Assembly (NCBI GenBank): GCA_027080245.1 | Contig: JALWSN010000214.1 | Location: forward strand, 1 to 24,160 | Length of the DNA stretch: 24,160 bases | Direction of reading: 5' to 3' | Source of the DNA: Ignavibacteriales bacterium | GTDB taxonomy: Bacteria; Bacteroidota; Ignavibacteria; Ignavibacteriales; Melioribacteraceae | Part shown: one piece after another, positions 5,269 to 24,147 of the stretch | How positions within the stretch are numbered: position 1 is the first letter of the stretch | How the letters are laid out: every line of letters starts with the position of its first letter | Notes under the pieces: generated by a model | Told to the model about the DNA's origin: nothing | The model's database searches: none | Seen by the model: the letters and a program-made list of their open reading frames with translations, nothing else | Position numbers and translations under genes: made by a program

Positions 5269-5730
5269 ATGTATAAGTTAAAAAAAGTAAAATTCGAAGA
5301 AGGAAGTGTAACTATTAATTATTTTTATTTTGTAGAAGATATGAAGATTGATTGTCAAATATCTTTTAATTACCCAGATTTTTTAAAAGAATCATATAAA
5401 CGATTCTTTGATTATTTTAAAAAAAATAATAAGGAATGTTTAATTAGATTAAAAGAAATTGAAATAACATATCCTGAAAAAGAATTAAAAAAAGAAAACA
5501 CTTCAAAAATTGTAATTGAGACCTCTTTCTTTGTTGAAAATAAAGATAAAGTTCAGATTACAACTTTCCCAATAATGTATCATCTTGATAAATATGGAAG
5601 TCCTAAACACTCTGATGATTTTTGGTTTATTTTTCAATTACTATTAGAAGATGTTTATAGTTTAATTGGTAGTTTTTATTGCGAGGCTATTAAACAAGGG
5701 GAACATTTATGTCGGCAGGAAAAAAATTAG
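5269..5730 (+). CDS. Hypothetical protein (AT-rich gene)
   Basis: AAGGAGG RBS; line 5281-5340 has 12/60 G+C by hand count. Confidence 0.7.
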   Translation: MYKLKKVKFEEGSVTINYFYFVEDMKIDCQISFNYPDFLKESYKRFFDYFKKNNKECLIRLKEIEITYPEKELKKENTSKIVIETSFFVENKDKVQITTFPIMYHLDKYGSPKHSDDFWFIFQLLLEDVYSLIGSFYCEAIKQGEHLCRQEKN

Positions 5731-6266
5731 CAAATAGTTTTAAGTTTGCAATTAAGGCAGTGGACAAGGCAAAGCTGAGTGCGCTTAATCGGGCGGCGCG
5801 CTCGGCAAGAGCCGAGGGAGTTAGGAAAGCACGAGAAATTTACAACATTAAAGCAGGAGACTTAAAAGAACAAATCCGTTTAATTCCTGCAACACGGCAA
5901 AGAAAATTTGCTTTATTGCAAGCTGTTTACAAAGGGATTTCTTTAATTAAATTCTCTGCAAGACCGACAAAACGTCCAAAGAAATACCGGACGGGTAAAA
6001 TCGGTGGAACAAAAGTAACGGTTAAGAAAGGAAAAAGAGAATTAATTCCTCACGCTTTTGTTCAAACAATTCGAGGTAAGGAAGGTGTGTTCGTGAGAAC
6101 GGGAAAGATAATACAAGGGAAAGAAACTGTTAAGAAATTATATGGTCCCTCGGCGGCGCACATATTGCACGATAAACGGGTGACCGATGCGATAGAAAAA
6201 AAATTTGTAGAGCAATTTAAGAAGGAGTTCGAGTCTAAACTCGATTATTACATCGAAAAATTTTAG
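5709..6266 (+). CDS. Minor tail protein Z (gpZ)-like tail completion protein
   Basis: ALNRAARSAR...YNIKAGDLK, HAFV...GVFVR, KLYGPS motifs; very basic, as in lambda gpZ family. Confidence 0.7.
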   Translation: MSAGKKLANSFKFAIKAVDKAKLSALNRAARSARAEGVRKAREIYNIKAGDLKEQIRLIPATRQRKFALLQAVYKGISLIKFSARPTKRPKKYRTGKIGGTKVTVKKGKRELIPHAFVQTIRGKEGVFVRTGKIIQGKETVKKLYGPSAAHILHDKRVTDAIEKKFVEQFKKEFESKLDYYIEKF

Positions 6267-6377: not shown

Positions 6378-7745
6378 ATGCAAAACAAAGTGGCAAAACT
6401 GATTGAAATTGAGTGGGAAAAACTTCGCTGGTTGCAAGGTGAATTAAAGCAAATAAGCAAAGAAAACATCGAGAAAATAAAAAACTCCTTCCGGGAAAAC
6501 GGTTTTGTGCAGCCGTTTTTTGTATGGAAAGATGACTCTGGCGAATATTGGATTCTGGACGGGCATCACCGCATAAAAGTTTTGCGTGAACTTAAAGAAG
6601 AGGGAGCGGACGTGCCGGAAAAGTTACCGGCAATTGAAATTGAAGCCGAAAGCAGAGACGCCGCGGCTAAGTTGGTTTTGATTTATTCAAGTTCTTATGC
6701 GGAAATAACAAAAGACGGTTTGGAAAAATTTGCAAAAGATTTTGACCTTGATTTAGAATCTCTTAATAAGGAAACCGATTTAATTGGTATTGACTTGGAT
6801 AGCTTAATAATTGATTTACGCCACGGGCAATTGACAGAAGAACAATTAGATGATGCACCTTCAGTACAAGAAAAGACATTCTCTCAAACCGGTGATATTT
6901 TTTTGCTCGATAACCGGCATCGGGTTATGTGTGGAGATAGCACAAAAAAAGAGGACGTCGAAAAATTAATGGACGGTAAAAAAGCGGATATATTTTATTC
7001 GGATCCGCCTTACAATATTGGGTTAGATTATAGAAATGGAATGAGGAATACACAAGATAAATACACAAAATCAAAAATTTTTAATGATGAAAAATCCGAA
7101 ATAGAATATAAAGAATTTATCTCAAATGCATTAAGAATCGCTAAATTATTTATGAAAGAGGATGCTCATTATTTTTATTGGTGTGATGAAAAATATATTT
7201 ATTTATTTCAAGAAATATTTGCCGAAAATAATATTAAAAACGAAAGAGTTAATATTTGGATTAAAAATACCTTTAATGTTATTCCTCAGATTGCTTTTAA
7301 TAAAATTTACGAACCTTGTATTTATGGGATTACAGGAAAGCCTTATTTAAATAAAGAATTAACTAATTTTTCAGAAATATTAAACTCTGAGTTAACCGGC
7401 AAGCAAATAATAAATAAGATTTTAAATTATTTAAATATTTGGATCGAGAAAAGAGACAGAACAGATAAATACGCACATCCAACACAAAAACCAGTTCAAT
7501 TACATTACAAACCAATAAAGAGATGCTCTACAATAATGGATATTATTTTAGATTTATTTTTGGGCTCCGGTAGCACATTAATTGCCGCCGAACAAACCGG
7601 GCGTGTTTGTTACGGAATGGAAATAGACCCGCATTTTATTGATGTTATTTTAAGACGCTACAAAAAATTATATCCTGACGCTGAAATAAAATGCCTTAAC
7701 AGAGAGTTTGATTTCGGAAAATTATTCGAGGGATTGAATGGCTGA
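6378..7745 (+). CDS. ParB-like domain fused to beta-class N6/N4 DNA methyltransferase
   Basis: N-terminal SFRENGFVQP...ILDGHHR (ParB/Srx); catalytic DPPY precedes HPTQKP and SAM-binding LDLFLGSGST. Confidence 0.92.
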   Translation: MQNKVAKLIEIEWEKLRWLQGELKQISKENIEKIKNSFRENGFVQPFFVWKDDSGEYWILDGHHRIKVLRELKEEGADVPEKLPAIEIEAESRDAAAKLVLIYSSSYAEITKDGLEKFAKDFDLDLESLNKETDLIGIDLDSLIIDLRHGQLTEEQLDDAPSVQEKTFSQTGDIFLLDNRHRVMCGDSTKKEDVEKLMDGKKADIFYSDPPYNIGLDYRNGMRNTQDKYTKSKIFNDEKSEIEYKEFISNALRIAKLFMKEDAHYFYWCDEKYIYLFQEIFAENNIKNERVNIWIKNTFNVIPQIAFNKIYEPCIYGITGKPYLNKELTNFSEILNSELTGKQIINKILNYLNIWIEKRDRTDKYAHPTQKPVQLHYKPIKRCSTIMDIILDLFLGSGSTLIAAEQTGRVCYGMEIDPHFIDVILRRYKKLYPDAEIKCLNREFDFGKLFEGLNG

Positions 7746-8274
7746 AACCAAACTCATTGACGTTCATACTCTTGCTCAATTCTGGGGTGTAGATGTTCGC
7801 ACGGTGCAGAATTATGCTGACGCTCGTTACGCACAACCTCCACTTCCGAGAGAGGCGCGCGGGAAATATGATTTCGTCAAAGCAATGAAATGGATGTATG
7901 AATACCAAAAAAAGAAAATAGAGGTATTAGAAACTTCCGGCGACGAAAAACTCCACGCACTCCGAATGCGCGGGCAAATAATTAAGAATAAAAAAGACGA
8001 AATTGCACTTAAGCGGGAGCTTGGGCAATTGCTCGATAAGAAAACGACATTGATTGCTTGGACGAACCAAATCAATGTGATTAAGAATTATCTTAATAGT
8101 CTCAAATATGACCTTACCCGAGACCTTGAGGATATTGTTGGCAAGGATGTTTTCACTCTGATGAAAGAAATAATCGAGCAAAACATTGACCGGATAATGG
8201 AAATAATTTCCAATCTTGAAATTGAGAAATATGTAATTGATGAAGAAAAACTATTGGAAGAAGAAGATAAATGA
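7738..8274 (+). CDS. terS: Terminase small subunit (Nu1-like)
   Basis: N-terminal wHTH LAQFWGVDVRTVQNY, coiled-coil middle, immediately upstream of large subunit. Confidence 0.8.
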   Translation: MAETKLIDVHTLAQFWGVDVRTVQNYADARYAQPPLPREARGKYDFVKAMKWMYEYQKKKIEVLETSGDEKLHALRMRGQIIKNKKDEIALKRELGQLLDKKTTLIAWTNQINVIKNYLNSLKYDLTRDLEDIVGKDVFTLMKEIIEQNIDRIMEIISNLEIEKYVIDEEKLLEEEDK

Positions 8275-14540: not shown

Positions 14541-16487
14541 ATGAAAATGAAAAAAGAAATTGAAAATTTACGCAACGAGCGGTTTGTAAGCCGCGCGGCT
14601 GTGGTGAAATCCGATATAATCGATGTTAAGAACCGGACAATCAGGACGGTGCTTGCAACGGAAACTCCTGCGGAAGTTTTCGATTGGGAGCGCTGGGAAG
14701 TTGTTCGGGAAATTCTAATGATTACTGACGATTCCGTAATGCTACCGGATAATCGTCAAGTTCCGCTTGTAGATACTCACGTCCGTTCCTCTGTGGAAAA
14801 GCTCAAGGGGTCGATACGAAATCTCCGAATTGAAGGTAACGAGCTTATTGGCGAGACGCAGTTCTCTTCTCTTGCAGAAGACGAGTGGACTAAGGCGCGG
14901 GAGGGACATCTTACAGATGTTTCCGTGGGTTATAGGACTTTCCCCGAAAATACGATCGTCTTAGCTCCGGGCGAAACCGCTAATGTTGGCGGGCGGGAAA
15001 TCAGGAATGATTTTCCGGACAAAAAGACACTGCTCATCCGTACGAAATGGCAGCCTAAGGAAGGCAGCCTTGTAATTGTCGGCGCGGACCCAAAAGCGCA
15101 GTTCCGGAGCTATTTCGAAAGCGAGACGGAAAAAACTACTATGCTCGGGGATTTGAAAAACGAAATAATTTCCGAACTGCAAAAGCAAAGAACCGAAATT
15201 GAGGAAAAAATTAAACATATCACATTTCAAGGAGAGAAAAAAATGGAAGAACCTAAAAACACACTTACGCCGGAGGAAATCCGCAAACAGGAATTGGAGA
15301 GAATCCGTGAAATTGAGGCGCTTAGCCAAAGATTTTTCGGCAAGGCTCCGAATCTCAAAGAAGAAGCGCAGAAAGCGATTCAGGAAGGTAAAAGCATTGA
15401 CGAATTCAGGAATTATATTCTTGACAACTTAGATGCTTCCCAGCCGGTCGAAACTCCGAAAACACAAATCGGAATGAGCAAAAAGGAAATTCAGGAATTC
15501 TCTATTTCACGTGCTATTCTTGCCGCGGCTTCGGGCGATTGGAATATTGCTCCGGGCGAAAGAGAAGCAATTAAGGCAACCGCAGAGGCATTGGGACGTG
15601 AATGGAACGACAAAAAAATTCTCCTGCCTCGTGAAGTTCAGCTCCGTGGCGCAAGGACACTCTATTCCGGCTCTACAGACGGGCAGTATGTTGTTGGAAC
15701 GGACTTGCGCGGAGATGAGTTCATTGAGTATTTGCGCGCAAAAACCGTACTCGGGCAGGCTGGAATGACAATCTTAACCGGCTTGAAAGATAACATCGCA
15801 ATTCCGAAACAGGACGGAGCAGTTTCCATTACAATGGTCGCCGAAGGTTCGGCAGCAACCGCCGCTGATTTGAGTCTTACTCAATTAAGCGCATCTCCAA
15901 AAACCGCAACTGCAAACACTTCATATTCACGGAAATTATTGCTGCAATCTAATCCTTCAATTGACAGCTTAGTAATGACCGACTTGTACCGCCAAATGGA
16001 CATCAAGCGGGATTATATGGGCTTGCACGGAGATGGCGTTGCGCCTAATCCTACCGGCGTTGCAAATACAACCGGTGTTGGCTCAGTAGATATGAGTTTG
16101 GCTGTCGATTGGAGCAAAATTGTTTCTTTCGAAACCGACATCGAAACTGCGAATGCCGACACTCCTTCGCTGAAATGGATTGCAAATCCGGCGGTAAAGG
16201 GGAAACTCAAAACCACATTGAAAGCATCGAACACAGGATTTTTCCTCTGGGAAAACAACGAGATGAATGGCTATCCTGCATTGTGGAGCAGTAATGTTGC
16301 GGCTCAGCATCTTTTCTTTGGCGATTGGAGTCAATTAATGTTCTTAGAGTGGGGCGTTGTGGAAATTATTGTTGATCCTTATACTCACTCCACAAGCGGA
16401 ATAATTGACGTAACAATTCTTGACGAATTCGACTTCATTGTTCGCCAGCCGGGTGCTTTCGCTGTTTCCATAAACGTTGCAGTGTAA
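14541..16487 (+). CDS. Fused prohead protease-scaffold-major capsid protein (HK97 fold)
   Basis: N-terminal LVDTH...DVSVGY (His/Ser protease motifs), E/K-rich coiled coil, C-terminal capsid motifs (SRKLLLQS, FFGDWSQL, VDPY, VRQPGAF); start may be ATG 14547. Confidence 0.92.
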   Translation: MKMKKEIENLRNERFVSRAAVVKSDIIDVKNRTIRTVLATETPAEVFDWERWEVVREILMITDDSVMLPDNRQVPLVDTHVRSSVEKLKGSIRNLRIEGNELIGETQFSSLAEDEWTKAREGHLTDVSVGYRTFPENTIVLAPGETANVGGREIRNDFPDKKTLLIRTKWQPKEGSLVIVGADPKAQFRSYFESETEKTTMLGDLKNEIISELQKQRTEIEEKIKHITFQGEKKMEEPKNTLTPEEIRKQELERIREIEALSQRFFGKAPNLKEEAQKAIQEGKSIDEFRNYILDNLDASQPVETPKTQIGMSKKEIQEFSISRAILAAASGDWNIAPGEREAIKATAEALGREWNDKKILLPREVQLRGARTLYSGSTDGQYVVGTDLRGDEFIEYLRAKTVLGQAGMTILTGLKDNIAIPKQDGAVSITMVAEGSAATAADLSLTQLSASPKTATANTSYSRKLLLQSNPSIDSLVMTDLYRQMDIKRDYMGLHGDGVAPNPTGVANTTGVGSVDMSLAVDWSKIVSFETDIETANADTPSLKWIANPAVKGKLKTTLKASNTGFFLWENNEMNGYPALWSSNVAAQHLFFGDWSQLMFLEWGVVEIIVDPYTHSTSGIIDVTILDEFDFIVRQPGAFAVSINVAV

Positions 16488-16522: not shown

Positions 16523-16708
16523 GTGGCAAAGATTGATTGGCAAAAACCGGAAAAGGTAAAGCTCTTACGTTCCGTGATTGTAAAAGAGCACGGGAAAGAA
16601 AAAGCAAAATCCTACAAAGCCGGGGACATTGTAACTGTTTCCGGTAAGGATAAACACGAGCTTATCGGACGTGGCATCGCAACCTTTGAATTGAAAGGCG
16701 AAAAATAA
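16523..16708 (+). CDS. Small basic protein downstream of capsid gene
   Basis: GTG start with AAGGAG RBS; YKAGDIVTV...ELIGRGIA pattern resembles small post-capsid phage proteins. Confidence 0.65.
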   Translation: MAKIDWQKPEKVKLLRSVIVKEHGKEKAKSYKAGDIVTVSGKDKHELIGRGIATFELKGEK

Positions 16709-17488: not shown

Positions 17489-17770
17489 ATGGCAGCTACA
17501 GAAAAATTTTACAACGGTGTTAGCTCGGATAATGTTAGCGTGGACGCACCGGCAACGGATGCGTTTGCAATTACTCCTGATGATGCTTCGGAGCTTACTT
17601 ACATTACACGGGCAATATTTGTGGGGTTGGACGGAGATATTAAGGTGAAAATGAAAGACGGAACAGCGGTGACATTTCAAAATTGTGTCGCGGGCAGTGT
17701 TTTGCCGATACGCGCAAGTCAAGTTTATGCAACCGGCACAACCGCAACTGGATTAATCGGATTGATTTGA
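17489..17770 (+). CDS. Head spike base protein, RcGTA Rcc01079-like
   Basis: AFAITPDD...TRAIFVG..GDIKV....G..VTF....AGSVLPIR...VYATGTTAT family pattern. Confidence 0.8.
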   Translation: MAATEKFYNGVSSDNVSVDAPATDAFAITPDDASELTYITRAIFVGLDGDIKVKMKDGTAVTFQNCVAGSVLPIRASQVYATGTTATGLIGLI

Positions 17771-17780
17771 GGTAAGGGAA

Positions 17781-17915
17781 ATGAAAATTTTTCTTGGATT
17801 ATTTTCTTCTGTCGGGAGAGTAATCCGAAAATTAATTGAAAATAACAGAGTAACTTCTACCGGAGATGTTCGAGTAACATCCTCGGGTAACATAAGAATT
17901 TCAAGGGAGGCATAA
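17781..17915 (+). CDS. 44-aa peptide, candidate spike-fibre adaptor (not in ORF track)
   Basis: Hand translation MKIFLGLFSSVGRVIRKLIENNRVTSTGDVRVTSSGNIRISREA*; GAGG RBS; fills the gap exactly. Confidence 0.7.
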   Translation: MKIFLGLFSSVGRVIRKLIENNRVTSTGDVRVTSSGNIRISREA

Positions 17916-17918
17916 AAA

Positions 17919-19544
17919 ATGGCTAACGTAACAATTTCGCAAATATCTGCAGAATTAACCGATCCTAATAATGGGAAAGAGGATGTAACTTATATCGAGA
18001 CCGACCATTCTACCGATGGAACTAAGAAAATGGCATTGAAAAATATCCGAAAATTGATTACTGAAAAATGGGTAGACCCAAGTGGTGGATATATTATGGA
18101 CGGGAATAATGACGTTATTACAGTTCCGCATAGCTCGGATATTGATTTTTCAACAGACCAAGATTTTTCTTTCGGTAAAACATTTGAGCTTGATGACTGG
18201 ACGCCTTCAAGTGAAATGGTACTTGCACAGAAGTATGATTCTACTAATCATAAGGGTTGGAGATTAAGCCTTACAACTTCTGGTGAGCTAAAACTTTCCT
18301 TTGGTAATGGCACAGATATAACTACTTATGTTTACACTTCCTTTACAACAGGTTTAACCTCCGGGAAACATTTTATCGGTTTTGCCGCTGAAAGAGATAC
18401 AAATAAAACCGGTTATGTTGGCAATGTTGAGTTTTATGTGGACGGACAATCTATCGGAACGGTAGATATTTCGGGTAGTTCTTCGCAAACATTAGCTAAT
18501 TCAAGTGATTTGTTAATAGCAAGCGACGGAACTAATTATTATGCAGAGACAGTTTATCGTCCTTATCTATTTAATATGCTTTTGTCCTCCGCACAATTTG
18601 AGCAACTTTGGAACAACGGCTCACCCGAAACAGCAACTATACCTTATGAGTTGCAAGGGGCAAACGTTGTTAATTCCTTTATTACTGGTTCTTCATCTGA
18701 TTTTGAGGGTGGAGTTGGTTCTTGGACTGCTCAAGATTCTGCTTCTGTTTCTCAATATACCTCTGATGCATATTCTGGTTCGGCTTCATTAAAAATAGAC
18801 ATTACAACTGCTTCGTTATCTTATGATACTGGTGATAAGGCAGTGCTTACGAAAGGTGGCTTAGAACCACGCTATTATATGATTTCTTTTTATGCTAAAT
18901 CGCTTTCTGGTGGGACTTCACTTTTGGTTGGACACACTGGCGGAACTGTTAAAGGGGAAACTTTTTCTATCAATACAACTGACTGGACACATATTATTTC
19001 CATTATTGATAGAACTGATATGAACTCCACTGCATATTTTAAACTTGGATTAGGCGATGCATCTGGCTCGTTTCTTATTGATGATTTTAAGTTGTACAAA
19101 GCTGGCAATGTCCTTGACCTTAAGCCAAGCGGAGCAGGAAATAATGCTTGGGTAGGAACTCTTGGTGGAGCTTCTGTGATAGCTAATACAAGTGGAAGTC
19201 CGATTGTAATTGGCAAAGGAGAGCTTGAAACCTACAAAGACGGACAGAATGGCATTACAGGAGATACTACATTAACCGATATAGCACCCGCAGGTTACAG
19301 GATAAAATCAATCTATTGGAAAGAGACAGCGGGAGGTAGTGCTACGGTAAATATTGGCACAACCGCCTCTGGAACTGATGTAGTAAATGGCTTAAGCGTA
19401 ACTGCCAATGGTGAAGGACTTGCCACAATAAGCAAGGATTTCTTCTCCTCAAGTTCAGACCAGACATTATACATTTCCTCTGCGGATTGGTCTGGTGTAC
19501 CAAGCATTGACCTTATATTTGTATTTGAAAAAATCGGAGGATAA
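17919..19544 (+). CDS. Virion fibre/receptor-binding protein with LamG (concanavalin-like) and CBM4/9-like domains
   Basis: GYIMDGNND...FSF...GWRL...FYVDG (LamG); SDFEGGVGSW...AYSGSASLKI...ISFYAK...LIDDFKL (CBM-like); S/T/G-rich; GGAGG RBS. Confidence 0.75.
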   Translation: MANVTISQISAELTDPNNGKEDVTYIETDHSTDGTKKMALKNIRKLITEKWVDPSGGYIMDGNNDVITVPHSSDIDFSTDQDFSFGKTFELDDWTPSSEMVLAQKYDSTNHKGWRLSLTTSGELKLSFGNGTDITTYVYTSFTTGLTSGKHFIGFAAERDTNKTGYVGNVEFYVDGQSIGTVDISGSSSQTLANSSDLLIASDGTNYYAETVYRPYLFNMLLSSAQFEQLWNNGSPETATIPYELQGANVVNSFITGSSSDFEGGVGSWTAQDSASVSQYTSDAYSGSASLKIDITTASLSYDTGDKAVLTKGGLEPRYYMISFYAKSLSGGTSLLVGHTGGTVKGETFSINTTDWTHIISIIDRTDMNSTAYFKLGLGDASGSFLIDDFKLYKAGNVLDLKPSGAGNNAWVGTLGGASVIANTSGSPIVIGKGELETYKDGQNGITGDTTLTDIAPAGYRIKSIYWKETAGGSATVNIGTTASGTDVVNGLSVTANGEGLATISKDFFSSSSDQTLYISSADWSGVPSIDLIFVFEKIGG

Positions 19545-21953: not shown

Positions 21954-22328
21954 ATGGGCTTCACATATTCGGGAATTAAGAAAGTTGAATATTCTTCTGA
22001 TGGCGGGACTACTTGGGTGGACTTGGGGACGCCTCTTTCCGATTCCACAATTGGTTTTGAGCCGCAGGAAAGCGAAACAGGGAAAGGCACGAGTCTTTAT
22101 GCCGGTGAGAAAAAAGAACACGTTTTTCACATTCCTGATCTCTCGAAATACTCTGCTCTCGAAACAATTATGAAAGCAGATACCGAAATTGATGTTCGTG
22201 TAACGGATGTGGAAGGCAATACCGAAACAATCGCAGAAGACGCAACCGTAAAAGTTAAGAAAGTTTATGCGGGCGCAGTTGGAAATCGTAATTACTTCGA
22301 GATGAAAGTTACAACTTTTGAAGCGTGA
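21954..22328 (+). CDS. Putative tail tube protein (paralog 1, core domain only)
   Basis: 124 aa, beta-rich, T/G/E-rich; AAGGAG RBS; homologous to N-termini of next two genes; tube call is inference. Confidence 0.6.
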   Translation: MGFTYSGIKKVEYSSDGGTTWVDLGTPLSDSTIGFEPQESETGKGTSLYAGEKKEHVFHIPDLSKYSALETIMKADTEIDVRVTDVEGNTETIAEDATVKVKKVYAGAVGNRNYFEMKVTTFEA

Positions 22329-23281
22329 TGATTTCAGGAACTAAGCGGGCGGCGGTTTATGATCCTTCCGACGGAACTGTTGTGCAGTTCAATAATCTTA
22401 TGCCGGAAGGTGATTTCAAAGTAAGAGAAAGTCTGGAAGATGAGACCGGAGTTGGAAATACAATTTTTTCCGGTGAGAAATCGACGGTCTCTTTCTTCTC
22501 TTTCGATGTTTCCGCTTATTCGCAGCTTAATATTTGGTCTGAAGCTGAAACGCCTTTGAGGCTGGTAATTGAGGGAGTTGAGAATCATATTCTCTGGTAT
22601 GAGGATGTTGCAGTTAAGGTAGAGCCTCATTACAAGGGAGCTGTTGGCGAGCTTAACGGAATTTCAATTACTTTCCATAAGAAAGGTGGTTTGCAAAGTG
22701 TTTACAACCTTAAGAATTTGTTGATCGGGGCTATTGGAGCGCCTTGGGCAACGGATTCCAATAATGACGGTATTGTGGACGGAATTGTTTTTTCGCTTGT
22801 TTCGGGGGCGGAGCCGGATTATTCGATTTTTTATTCACGTTATCAGGGAATTACAAGCGCGGGAACGGGTGAAATTACCGCGACAATGCAGATTGAATTT
22901 CCTCTTGCCGGAGTTGAGCTTACTGCATTCCCTAATATTTATTTGAATGATAACACTTTTAATTCGCACACATTGAAAGCGGTAGATTTTTCGGGAACGG
23001 TTCTTGCGAGTGCAACTTCAACAAATCCTGAAGAAACAATTTCCATAACAACACCGGCAAATACGTACAAAATAATTTACGAGCTTGCGGATATTACTCT
23101 CGGAGACGCAGGCAAAATTACAAATATTGACGTGCCTTATCTCGGCACAGATGCTGAAAATTATCAAGATATTTGCGAGTGGGGTTTTGCGACGGACCCG
23201 ACTACTTATGACAGAGTTACTTCCAGCGGAGATACAAGAACAACTTCCATTGGAAATGAAAGAATAGCAGTAATAATTTGA
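22325..23281 (+). CDS. Tail-tube-like paralog 2 with C-terminal extension and RVTS-G motif tail
   Basis: 318 aa; colinear with 23290-24147; N-terminal ~122 aa aligns with 21954-22328. Confidence 0.7.
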   Translation: MMISGTKRAAVYDPSDGTVVQFNNLMPEGDFKVRESLEDETGVGNTIFSGEKSTVSFFSFDVSAYSQLNIWSEAETPLRLVIEGVENHILWYEDVAVKVEPHYKGAVGELNGISITFHKKGGLQSVYNLKNLLIGAIGAPWATDSNNDGIVDGIVFSLVSGAEPDYSIFYSRYQGITSAGTGEITATMQIEFPLAGVELTAFPNIYLNDNTFNSHTLKAVDFSGTVLASATSTNPEETISITTPANTYKIIYELADITLGDAGKITNIDVPYLGTDAENYQDICEWGFATDPTTYDRVTSSGDTRTTSIGNERIAVII

Positions 23282-23289
23282 GGTGAAAA

Positions 23290-24147
23290 ATGATTAGCGG
23301 GATTAAACGGGCTGCAATCTATGACCCGGCAACAGGAACGGTGGTGCAGTTTAACAAAGTTTCTCCTGAAGGAGAGTTCAAAATTTGTGAGCCGATTGAA
23401 GTTGAAAGCGGGAAAGGCGGGACGGTTTACGCCGGTGATGACAGCTCGGTAACATTGAAAACTTACGACGTTTCTAATTATTCTCAATTGGAAACTTGGA
23501 TGGACAATGAAACGCCGGTTCGAATGGTAATTGAAGGCGTAGAAGAACACATTCTTTGGTACGAAAGCGTTCCTCTCGTGGTTAAGAAAAATTACGAGGG
23601 AGGCGTTGGGAAACTCAATAGTCTTTCAATTACGCTTTCAAAGAAAGGTGGGACGCACAATATTTATGCCCTAAAGAATCTTTTGCTCGGCGCACTTGGC
23701 GCTGCGTGGCCCACTGATGACGATAATGACGGCAAGGTGGATAATGTAACTTATGCAACTGCCTCGGGGAGTGATCCCGATTATTCAATTTCCGCTTCGA
23801 AATATCAGAAAATTTCGAGTGACGGGACGGCAATAGTTACCGGAAAGATTGAGTTTGAGTTTCCTATTCAGGGAGCTACGCTTATTGCGGCGGTTGATTT
23901 GTATATCAATATGAATACATTCAATTCGCATACTCTTACCGTTAAGGATTTTTCCGGAAGTTCGCTTACGAGTGATACGGATACGAGTGATTCTAACACT
24001 CTCAGCGTTACAACTCCTGCAAATACCTACAAAATTTCTTACGAGTTTGTGAATTTGGAAATGAGTTCAACGGCTACGGACGAAACACAAATTGCAGTTC
24101 CTTATACCGGAACGGATGCGAACAATTACACGAATATTAATTACTAA
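23290..24147 (+). CDS. Tail-tube-like paralog 3 with C-terminal extension
   Basis: 285 aa; shares ISG.KRAA.YDP, TVVQFN, IEGVE.HILWYE, KKGG, LKNLL, NTFNSHTL, TTPANTYKI with paralog 2. Confidence 0.7.
   Translation: MISGIKRAAIYDPATGTVVQFNKVSPEGEFKICEPIEVESGKGGTVYAGDDSSVTLKTYDVSNYSQLETWMDNETPVRMVIEGVEEHILWYESVPLVVKKNYEGGVGKLNSLSITLSKKGGTHNIYALKNLLLGALGAAWPTDDDNDGKVDNVTYATASGSDPDYSISASKYQKISSDGTAIVTGKIEFEFPIQGATLIAAVDLYINMNTFNSHTLTVKDFSGSSLTSDTDTSDSNTLSVTTPANTYKISYEFVNLEMSSTATDETQIAVPYTGTDANNYTNINY

Follow-up and report, generated by a model that had tools for sequence, protein, structure and literature searches.

The stretch analysed here (the window) is the entire 24,160-bp contig JALWSN010000214.1 from a metagenome-assembled genome of an Ignavibacteriales bacterium (GCA_027080245.1), which, by its gene content, reads as a lambda-like siphophage. 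In a look-up of sequencing runs, it was present only in the probable source sample, a hydrothermal-vent metagenome, and no ribonucleic acid dataset was among the holders. Inside the head operon of this phage, three open reading frames (ORFs) of the forward strand follow each other: the gene for a head-spike base, a micro-ORF encoding a peptide of 44 amino acids (aa), and the gene for a long fibre protein (Table 1). The boundaries that the first-pass annotation, prepared from the sequence alone, had given for the three ORFs proved correct. The features of this trio suggest a spike of the capsid vertex in which the two jobs performed by a single fibre chain in the Rhodobacter capsulatus gene transfer agent (RcGTA) may be assigned to two proteins.

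Table 1. Position of the spike trio, its proposed functional segments and the tail paralog in the window
Feature	Positions	Strand	Evidence
Head-spike base, 93 aa, Rcc01079/GhsA family	17489-17770	+	NF048002, PDB 6tb9, 8cjz, phrog_12296
Micro-protein, 44 aa, proposed adaptor, made up of the anchor, a short amphipathic stretch and the docking tag	17781-17915	+	Position conservation, dN/dS, profile search
Anchor segment, peptide residues 2-12 (KIFLGLFSSVG); hydrophobic alternation I3, L5, L7, (S9), V11	17784-17816	+	Pattern of Rcc01080 IALGLGLGL
Docking tag (residues 23-41 of the peptide) with the strand-turn units RVTSTGDV and RVTSSGNI in tandem	17847-17903	+	Repeat in sequence
Fibre, 541 aa, probable glycan-binding receptor-binding protein, no own anchor	17919-19544	+	CBM-like matches, homologues P0003, P0004 and P0005
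Fibre N-domain, ~50 aa, MANVTISQI...TDGTKKM..., proposed tag partner	17919-18068	+	P0004, L014/15
Fibre C-terminal domain, ~150 aa, exchanged between phages	19089-19532	+	75% identity to P0003 C-terminus
Tail-tube-fold paralog, 318 aa, CBM-like domain, C-terminal tag; second proposed docking site	22325-23281	+	AlphaFold2, fold search
Second tag copy, RVTSSGDTRTTSIGNERIA, C-terminus of the tail paralog	23213-23269	+	13/20 identity to peptide tag

The product of the first gene matched the NCBIfam model NF048002 (spike_base) with an E-value (E) of 1.4e-30 (105 bits at a cut-off of 28), Protein Data Bank (PDB) entries 6tb9, “Head spike base Rcc01079” (E 1.1e-10), and 8cjz, “Spike Base Protein” (E 1.2e-3), as well as phrog_12296 (E 1.9e-24). 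The C-terminal amino acid motif ATGTTAT.L.GL, conserved among the 77 homologues found, is kept in the window. Judging by these matches, the 93-aa protein belongs securely to the Rcc01079 family, as the first-pass annotation had proposed. In a search of 401 genomes of the host phylum, the family was found in 3, the window’s own genome included. The literature search found no paper on PDB entry 8CJZ. The homologues in Rhodobacter phage RcapNL (gp29), Verrucomicrobia phage P8625 (gp23) and Flavobacterium phage immuto (206), i.e., loci L022, L023 and L025 (related loci and homologous proteins are designated here by L and P numbers, respectively), are labelled “tail fiber protein” in GenBank, and so is phrog_12296. 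It appears that a wrong label has been passed on for a protein of the capsid vertex.

The 44-aa peptide had no family match in Pfam, PHROGs or NCBIfam, and the micro-ORF was skipped by gene callers in L010, L014, L015 and L018 (about half of the loci). Both facts would fit an untranslated ORF in a non-coding gap between the base and the fibre. Still, when the closest base homologues were taken from metagenomes and the DNA 3' of the base was read for micro-ORFs, the peptide gene turned out to be conserved in at least eight further metagenomic lineages (nine with the window), intact at a divergence of the base down to 58% identity and beyond. It lies directly after the base in L014/L015 (base identity to the window 83%; 43 aa, MKIFLGFFSSIG...STGDVRVTSSGDIRI...), L016/L017 (76%; 44 aa, MKIFIGLFANTV...), L018 (58%; 47 aa, with IDGAGN and TDGNGN units) and L029/L031, which are syntenic with the window (base of the spike_base family, profile E 1e-32; 46 aa). 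It is found after other small proteins in L010/L011/L012, L027 and L028; the first of these groups, reached via the fibre homologue P0004, encodes a 45-aa ORF with IDESGN units. L013, reached via the fibre homologue P0003, possesses a 71-aa ORF with W-E-N repeats. All lineages display one and the same peptide architecture, namely an anchor, an amphipathic segment and two hairpins.

Comparison of the window, L014 and L016 yielded a ratio of nonsynonymous to synonymous substitutions (dN/dS) of 0.16–0.41 for the peptide at dS of 0.46–1.48, the corresponding ratio for the base being 0.14–0.15. A profile built from five peptides and run against 1.84 billion representative proteins returned, as full-peptide matches, only proteins of 43–46 aa; three of them were new, each encoded between a small protein of 89–100 aa and a fibre. 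The substitution ratios, the conserved architecture and the homologues annotated in further samples show the micro-ORF to be a real gene under purifying selection, and its being non-coding is most improbable. At the same time, tblastn of the peptide and the fibre N-domain gave no match in 50,697 phage records, and the stand-alone peptide P0229 gave chance-level matches only, the best of which (MW202691) falls within a 344-aa protein. Thus, the trio of base, peptide and fibre is absent from the isolated phages of this collection.

The RcGTA spike is composed of a base pentamer and one fibre chain, and residues 2–10 of the fibre protein Rcc01080 (IALGLGLGL) form a five-point star filling five hydrophobic pockets of the pentamer (PMC7296036); the first-pass annotation had named this anchor correctly. 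In the window, the gene directly after the base also opens with alternating hydrophobic residues, as in the RcGTA-type spike (4/5 positions), the peptide start MKIFLGLF being seen in the sequence as first reported. Where a spike base is not followed by a micro-ORF, a long gene comes next and bears the anchor at its start, e.g., MGLGLGIGLGL in RcapNL gp30, MIGLGLDLSL in P8625 gp24 (584 aa, annotated as concanavalin A (ConA)-like), MYIGLGISL in immuto 207 and MIGLGLNI in Edwardsiella phage ZHS 9; in a group from IMG/VR, the gene after the base starts with MSAGVGTGAGIGL. A canonical anchor is carried by the stand-alone peptides P0229 (MRLGLGLGV) and P0132 (MKIGFGISL), and relatives of the window peptide keep four to five of the five alternating hydrophobic positions. 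The strict test for the anchor (at least 4/5 alternating I/L/V/M/F and at least 3/4 small or polar residues in between) was passed by 6/9 peptide lineages vs. 6/163 background ORFs, and the fibres encoded behind the peptides scored 2/5 in the anchor test.

The C-terminal part of the peptide is a repeat, RVTSTGDVR/VTSSGNIR, in which AlphaFold2 (AF2) drew, at low confidence, strands at residues 29–32 and 38–41. A tag of the same [ST/D]xG[DN]-turn class occurs in every peptide lineage. The first-pass annotation had described the repeat as a feature of the peptide; it is indeed there, but it is not confined to the peptide and recurs at the C-terminus of a 318-aa protein from the tail region. The two copies are identical at 13/20 positions, whereas the maximum at 48,202 other six-frame positions is 8/20. 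Of the 13 identical residues, 7 are encoded by different codons, so the tail tag is not a fresh DNA copy. The colinear paralog at 23290–24147 has no tag. In L031, the peptide tag GWTDGNGNTMTDGNGNYIVL is matched by the end of a tail-family paralog with 155 aa, GWTDGNGNTITDGNGNNIIL (17/20 identical, background maximum 7). These tags are of another type than those of the window (TDGNGN vs. RVTSxGD), and both copies have therefore, as far as the sequences tell, switched type together between the phages.

The 318-aa carrier of the second tag was modelled by AF2 with a predicted local distance difference test score (pLDDT) of 68.9 and a predicted template modelling score of 0.67. Its residues 4–143 (pLDDT 77–91) adopt a tail-tube/Hcp fold in the model, with Z-scores of 9.8 to the major tail protein of YSD1, 10.1 to Hcp1, 8.1–8.7 to several phage tubes and 7.5 to the RcGTA tube; residues 130–275 resemble a beta-sandwich of the carbohydrate-binding module (CBM) kind (Z 8–10). 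Foldseek matches to Dit and tail-tube proteins agree with this assignment, and the tag itself is disordered in the model (pLDDT 22–28). The gene belongs to three tandem paralogs (124, 318 and 285 aa; 21954–24147) sharing the tail-tube-fold domain, of which the two long ones add the CBM-like beta-sandwich. L031 possesses four such paralogs, one of them behind putative chaperone genes; several tube-fold genes in a row are unusual for a siphophage. The linker between the tube and CBM-like domains (22745–22790, approximately residues 141–155 of the 318-aa protein) reads PWATDSNNDGIVDG in the window paralogs and GWADGDSDGIADN in L031 (11608–12435). It is similar both to the TDGNGN-type tag of L031 and to calcium-binding loops of the DxDxDG kind, and it may be the origin of the tag.

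The occurrence of the tag on a structural tail protein bears on the possibility that the micro-protein is an assembly factor missing from finished particles, for instance a chaperone of the fibre or a peptide of morphogenesis or lysis whose N-terminus is hydrophobic. Small genes beside fibre genes often encode chaperones, and AF2 draws peptide residues 2–22 as a helix, albeit at low confidence. However, basic residues at positions 13, 16 and 17 break the hydrophobic stretch, leaving no membrane span, and fibre chaperones are usually encoded downstream of the fibre gene. Since such a function would explain neither the LGLGLG motif in the relatives nor the tag on the tail protein, it is regarded here as improbable.

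The third gene of the trio encodes a fibre whose binding function can be approached by its domains. Residues 259–377 matched Pfam CBM_4_9 (PF02018) with E 1.3e-4 and 22.8 bits, under the gathering threshold of 25.9, so the domain is termed CBM-like here and its membership in CBM_4_9 is not established; the fibre also matched PDB 1h6y, the CBM22 of xylanase Y (E 3.9e-4). The fibre had initially been described as a laminin G (LamG) plus CBM-like protein. The CBM-like part of that description stands with the reservation just given, but Laminin_G_3 (PF13385) had no match in the window fibre at E ≤ 0.1, precomputed matches to it existing only on the homologues P0005 and the L031 fibre; the AF2 model of this part of the window fibre is of low confidence. 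The fibre probably binds sugar, the evidence for which is modest, and a glycan is its presumed target.

The fibre is clearly a domain-shuffled mosaic, as far as comparison with its homologues P0003, P0004 and P0005 can tell, each of them matching a different segment of it. The last 150 residues share 75% identity with the end of P0003 (L013, 8001–9902) from an otherwise unrelated phage; P0003 has a different N-terminus and follows the W-E-N micro-protein of L013, and the first 75 residues of the window fibre match a third phage (P0004; 44% identity, Met1 aligned with Met1). Hence the mosaic structure. The N-domain is kept in L014/15 with unrelated sequence behind it, and all fibres encoded behind DxxGN-type peptides begin with a ~50-residue domain patterned as MA[ND]x[RT]I[KS][DQ][LI]...[RK]K[IM] (of the MAD[IVT]RIKDL type), beyond which they diverge. 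Searches with parts of the fibre returned little: residues 1–60 alone retrieved only the window’s own protein among homologues, the fibre found no related locus in viral contigs, and the N-domain alignment gave 69 pattern matches in the related-locus search, none of which was confirmed. When the read-through fibre was compared by BLASTP with P8625 gp24 and immuto 207, a single weak local match (E 0.003) came up.

The junction between the peptide and the fibre reads GCA TAA AAA ATG, with the two ORFs in frame, and the sequence AGGGAGG, a strong Shine-Dalgarno motif of the fibre’s own, lies 8 nt upstream of the fibre ATG; both the junction and the separate ribosome-binding site had been noted in the first-pass annotation. 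The same annotation had left room for read-through of the stop codon or for a recent TAA mutation in a continuous gene. If the peptide and the fibre were one chain, whether for these reasons or because of an assembly error, the module would be an ordinary two-gene spike of the RcGTA type. L014, L011 and L031 likewise have the two ORFs in frame, as this explanation would have it, but L031 shows two in-frame TAA codons, in L016, L018, L027, L028 and L013 the ORFs are out of frame, and the spacing varies from -1 to 18 nt across the lineages. The variable frame and spacing argue against programmed read-through. The start of the homologous P0004 at the same Met argues that the stop is not a recent break of a continuous gene, and no fused form was found among the 1.84 billion representatives, where no protein longer than 46 aa matched the full peptide. 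Overall, anchor and fibre are separate ORFs in 9/9 lineages, unlike the single polypeptide of the RcGTA type, and a one-chain origin of the module is highly improbable.

The position of the peptide can be read in yet another way: it might be only a plug, cap or stabiliser of the base pentamer, the 541-aa protein being an ordinary tail fibre attached otherwise, perhaps via the tail paralog, and not on the head. The anchor motif speaks for base binding only, the fibre gene is situated between the head and the lysis/tail modules, the tag is found on the tail-tube-fold protein as well, and the trio of L013 is placed after tail genes. Nevertheless, a plain plug would need no conserved 20-residue C-terminal tag of the tail-protein type. 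Moreover, the peptide gene adjoins that of a fibre with an N-domain, often with translational coupling, in all nine lineages, and in other spike-base loci it is the fibre itself that comes after the base. The plug is thus an unlikely explanation.

The partner of the tag is suggested by comparing which parts of the module change together. The window and L013 share a C-terminal domain, and both the tag and the N-domain differ between them; the tag class therefore appears to go with the N-domain of the fibre, not with its distal C-domain. A Mantel test of tag vs. N-domain distances gave r 0.44 at p of about 0.05, a result resting on 7 related lineages only, and the test of tag vs. base gave r -0.22. 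In L032 (756–1907), an unrelated contig, a 274-aa protein bears three spaced double tags (RITESGDLRLSESGDTRIT and similar), and the gene right after it opens with MANVKISDL...TSKKVT..., i.e., with the N-domain type of the window. The three tags could match a trimeric fibre. The three-tag protein of L032 adjoins a Gp80-like protein.

The double-hairpin tag might also bind something other than the fibre and common to the head and the tail, such as a host surface glycan, another virion protein or the tag itself. NHL beta-propellers contain a DxxGNxYV hairpin that is similar to the tag, the profile of the tag matches many multi-copy repeat proteins, and the covariation with the N-domain is weak; these facts would be in keeping with such a target. 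On the other hand, a segment of 20 residues that is disordered alone makes an unlikely lectin, the tag adjoins an N-domain fibre in independent contexts, L032 among them, and its class tracks the class of the N-domain rather than that of the C-domain. A target other than the fibre is accordingly considered quite unlikely.

Taken together, the conserved micro-ORF, the anchor motif in its relatives and the mosaic, anchorless fibres with a shared N-domain uphold the proposal of the first-pass annotation that the anchor has been split off as a stand-alone adaptor, making the receptor-binding part interchangeable. We therefore lean, by a modest degree, towards a three-gene capsid-vertex spike with a split anchor and a portable fibre-docking tag, whose protein–protein contacts and stoichiometry we infer as follows. 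The base, as its family membership suggests, would cap eleven capsid pentamers. One 44-aa chain would fill the five pockets that the base pentamer offers with its N-terminal run of alternating hydrophobic residues, like residues 2–10 of Rcc01080, as the motif and the gene position imply. The C-terminal double-hairpin tag would then project outward and capture the N-domain of the separately translated fibre, a contact to which the gene adjacency, the covariation and the sharing of the tag point. The tail-tube-fold paralog presents the same tag, so the tail, too, probably displays this fibre. With attachment parts so short and separable, distal sugar-binding parts could be swapped leaving the virion interface untouched.

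Several observations weigh against this spike with a split anchor. The anchor of the window is degenerate (I-L-L-S-V with Phe, not Gly, in between), scoring 4/5 for hydrophobic but only 2/4 for small or polar residues. The small protein upstream of the peptide in L011, L028 and L013 is phrog_34166 and not of the spike-base family; hhalign found no homology between spike_base and the phrog_34166-type proteins of these loci (probability 0.2%), so they are not called bases, and their role as a pentameric socket for the peptide is assumed. The covariation of tag and N-domain is not strict either: the N-domains of the window and L011 are similar (0.51), yet their tags differ in type. Some of the profile matches of the tag are at the motif level only, given its resemblance to the NHL-repeat hairpin; this likeness is limited to DxxGNxYV, and repeats of the NHL kind (PF01436, a six-bladed propeller with repeats of ~40 residues) were not found in the tag, which comprises just two units of 8–9 residues. 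Finally, the AF2 model of the read-through chain, built on a 13-row alignment, had a mean pLDDT of 50.8; the peptide scored under 50 and was given a helical N-terminus, and only the C-terminal domain of the fibre was modelled better (pLDDT 73–84). Because of the low score, the model was used neither for a fold search nor for claims about interfaces.

A broader proposal can be put forward more tentatively, and we rate it as plausible but short of an even chance. According to it, the double hairpin would be a general, portable docking tag of virions and the MA[ND]x[RT]I... N-domain its receptor, the pair working in a plug-and-play manner on the vertex micro-protein, on tail-tube paralogs and on other structural proteins (in up to three copies). 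One exchangeable fibre could thereby serve both the head and the tail, and the micro-proteins of 43–47 aa would constitute a family overlooked because gene callers skip it.

L013 represents a third type of system (7025–7990), in which the 71-aa W-E-N micro-protein comes after the phrog_34166-type small protein and the fibre N-terminus is of another type, MSTSLTGVYPADSYKDL. The 128-aa protein just upstream ends in a W-Q-N...W-E-E motif resembling the micro-protein repeat. The likeness was considered as a candidate for a shared tag and rejected, since it is at the motif level only and gave no outlier in the identity scan.

As to the surroundings of the trio, the 5' part of the contig comprises, in this order, genes for a replication initiator, DnaB helicase, methyltransferase, and the small and large terminase subunits. 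In the head part, a joining protein of head and tail and the portal come first; the fused protease and capsid protein, an ORF of 61 aa, a head-tail attachment protein similar to FII and a 160-aa protein without assignment come after them. The trio is followed by four small ORFs, endolysin, holin and the three paralogs reaching the contig end. A single ORF of 648 aa (14541–16487; phrog_617 and phrog_4523) encodes the prohead protease fused to the major capsid protein. The 61-aa ORF behind the fusion (16523–16708) has a weak DUF7210 match and may encode a decoration or scaffold-like peptide; the same arrangement is kept in L029/L031. A 185-aa protein (5709–6266) matching phrog_27, “tail completion or Neck1 protein” (E 2.6e-25), is placed amid the replication and methyltransferase genes, distant from the structural module.

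RcGTA-type head spikes, as known so far, consist of two proteins; the GhsA/GhsB spike was reportedly the subject of work by Westbye et al. in 2016. If the split is true, uncultured phages forming a widespread group divide the anchor from the binding part, which would reveal a new class of virion micro-proteins of ~45 aa and explain how fibres are shuffled without disturbing the capsid interface. It would also provide a minimal, genetically separable pair of a tag (20 residues) and a receptor domain (50 residues), directly testable and usable for display on the capsids or tails of laboratory phages. Current annotation wrongly calls the base a “tail fiber protein” and in many cases overlooks the micro-ORF. 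The literature search brought up no paper in which a split head-fibre anchor is described.

The closest known counterpart is the RcGTA spike itself (Rcc01079/GhsA and Rcc01080/GhsB; PDB 6TB9, 6TBA, 6TSU and 6TUI; Bardy et al. 2020, PMC7296036). The bases are homologous, the gene right after the base starts in both with an alternating hydrophobic peptide of the five-point-star type, and the fibre is probably polysaccharide-binding in either case. In contrast to RcGTA, the anchor of the window resides on a separate 44-aa protein that also bears the docking tag, the fibre is anchorless and furnished with a distinct N-domain, and the tag is duplicated on the tail-tube paralog. The window module is embedded in a siphophage head operon, whereas the RcGTA spike is encoded at a remote locus. 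Judged by sequence, what seems new relative to RcGTA-type spikes is that anchor and fibre are not one chain, that the tag sits on a micro-protein and that a second tag is found on the tail.

Two-gene pairs similar to that of RcGTA are known in RcapNL (gp29/gp30), P8625 (gp23/gp24), immuto (206/207) and ZHS (8/9). They share with the window the base homologue and the anchor at the start of the next gene, and the ConA-like lectin protein gp24 of P8625 is similar in size to the window fibre. The difference is that in these pairs anchor and fibre form one polypeptide, and there is neither a micro-ORF nor a tag.

Docking of the cohesin–dockerin type offers an analogy only: there, too, a short tag made of duplicated segments recruits a common partner to different carriers, but there is no relation in sequence or fold, the T1 tag of the window has none of the acidic positions that would bind calcium, and the partner domains are not related. 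Adaptor-mediated attachment of tailspikes is known in podophages and myophages, e.g., the gp37-type adaptors of SP6/K1-5 and the branched tailspikes of G7C and CBA120. The logic is the same, since keeping the virion-binding part apart from the receptor-binding protein permits the exchange or multiplexing of the latter. However, the adaptors of these phages are folded domains of at least 100 aa located on the tail, whereas the one considered here is a 44-aa peptide with a 20-residue tag, proposed to act at the vertices of the capsid.

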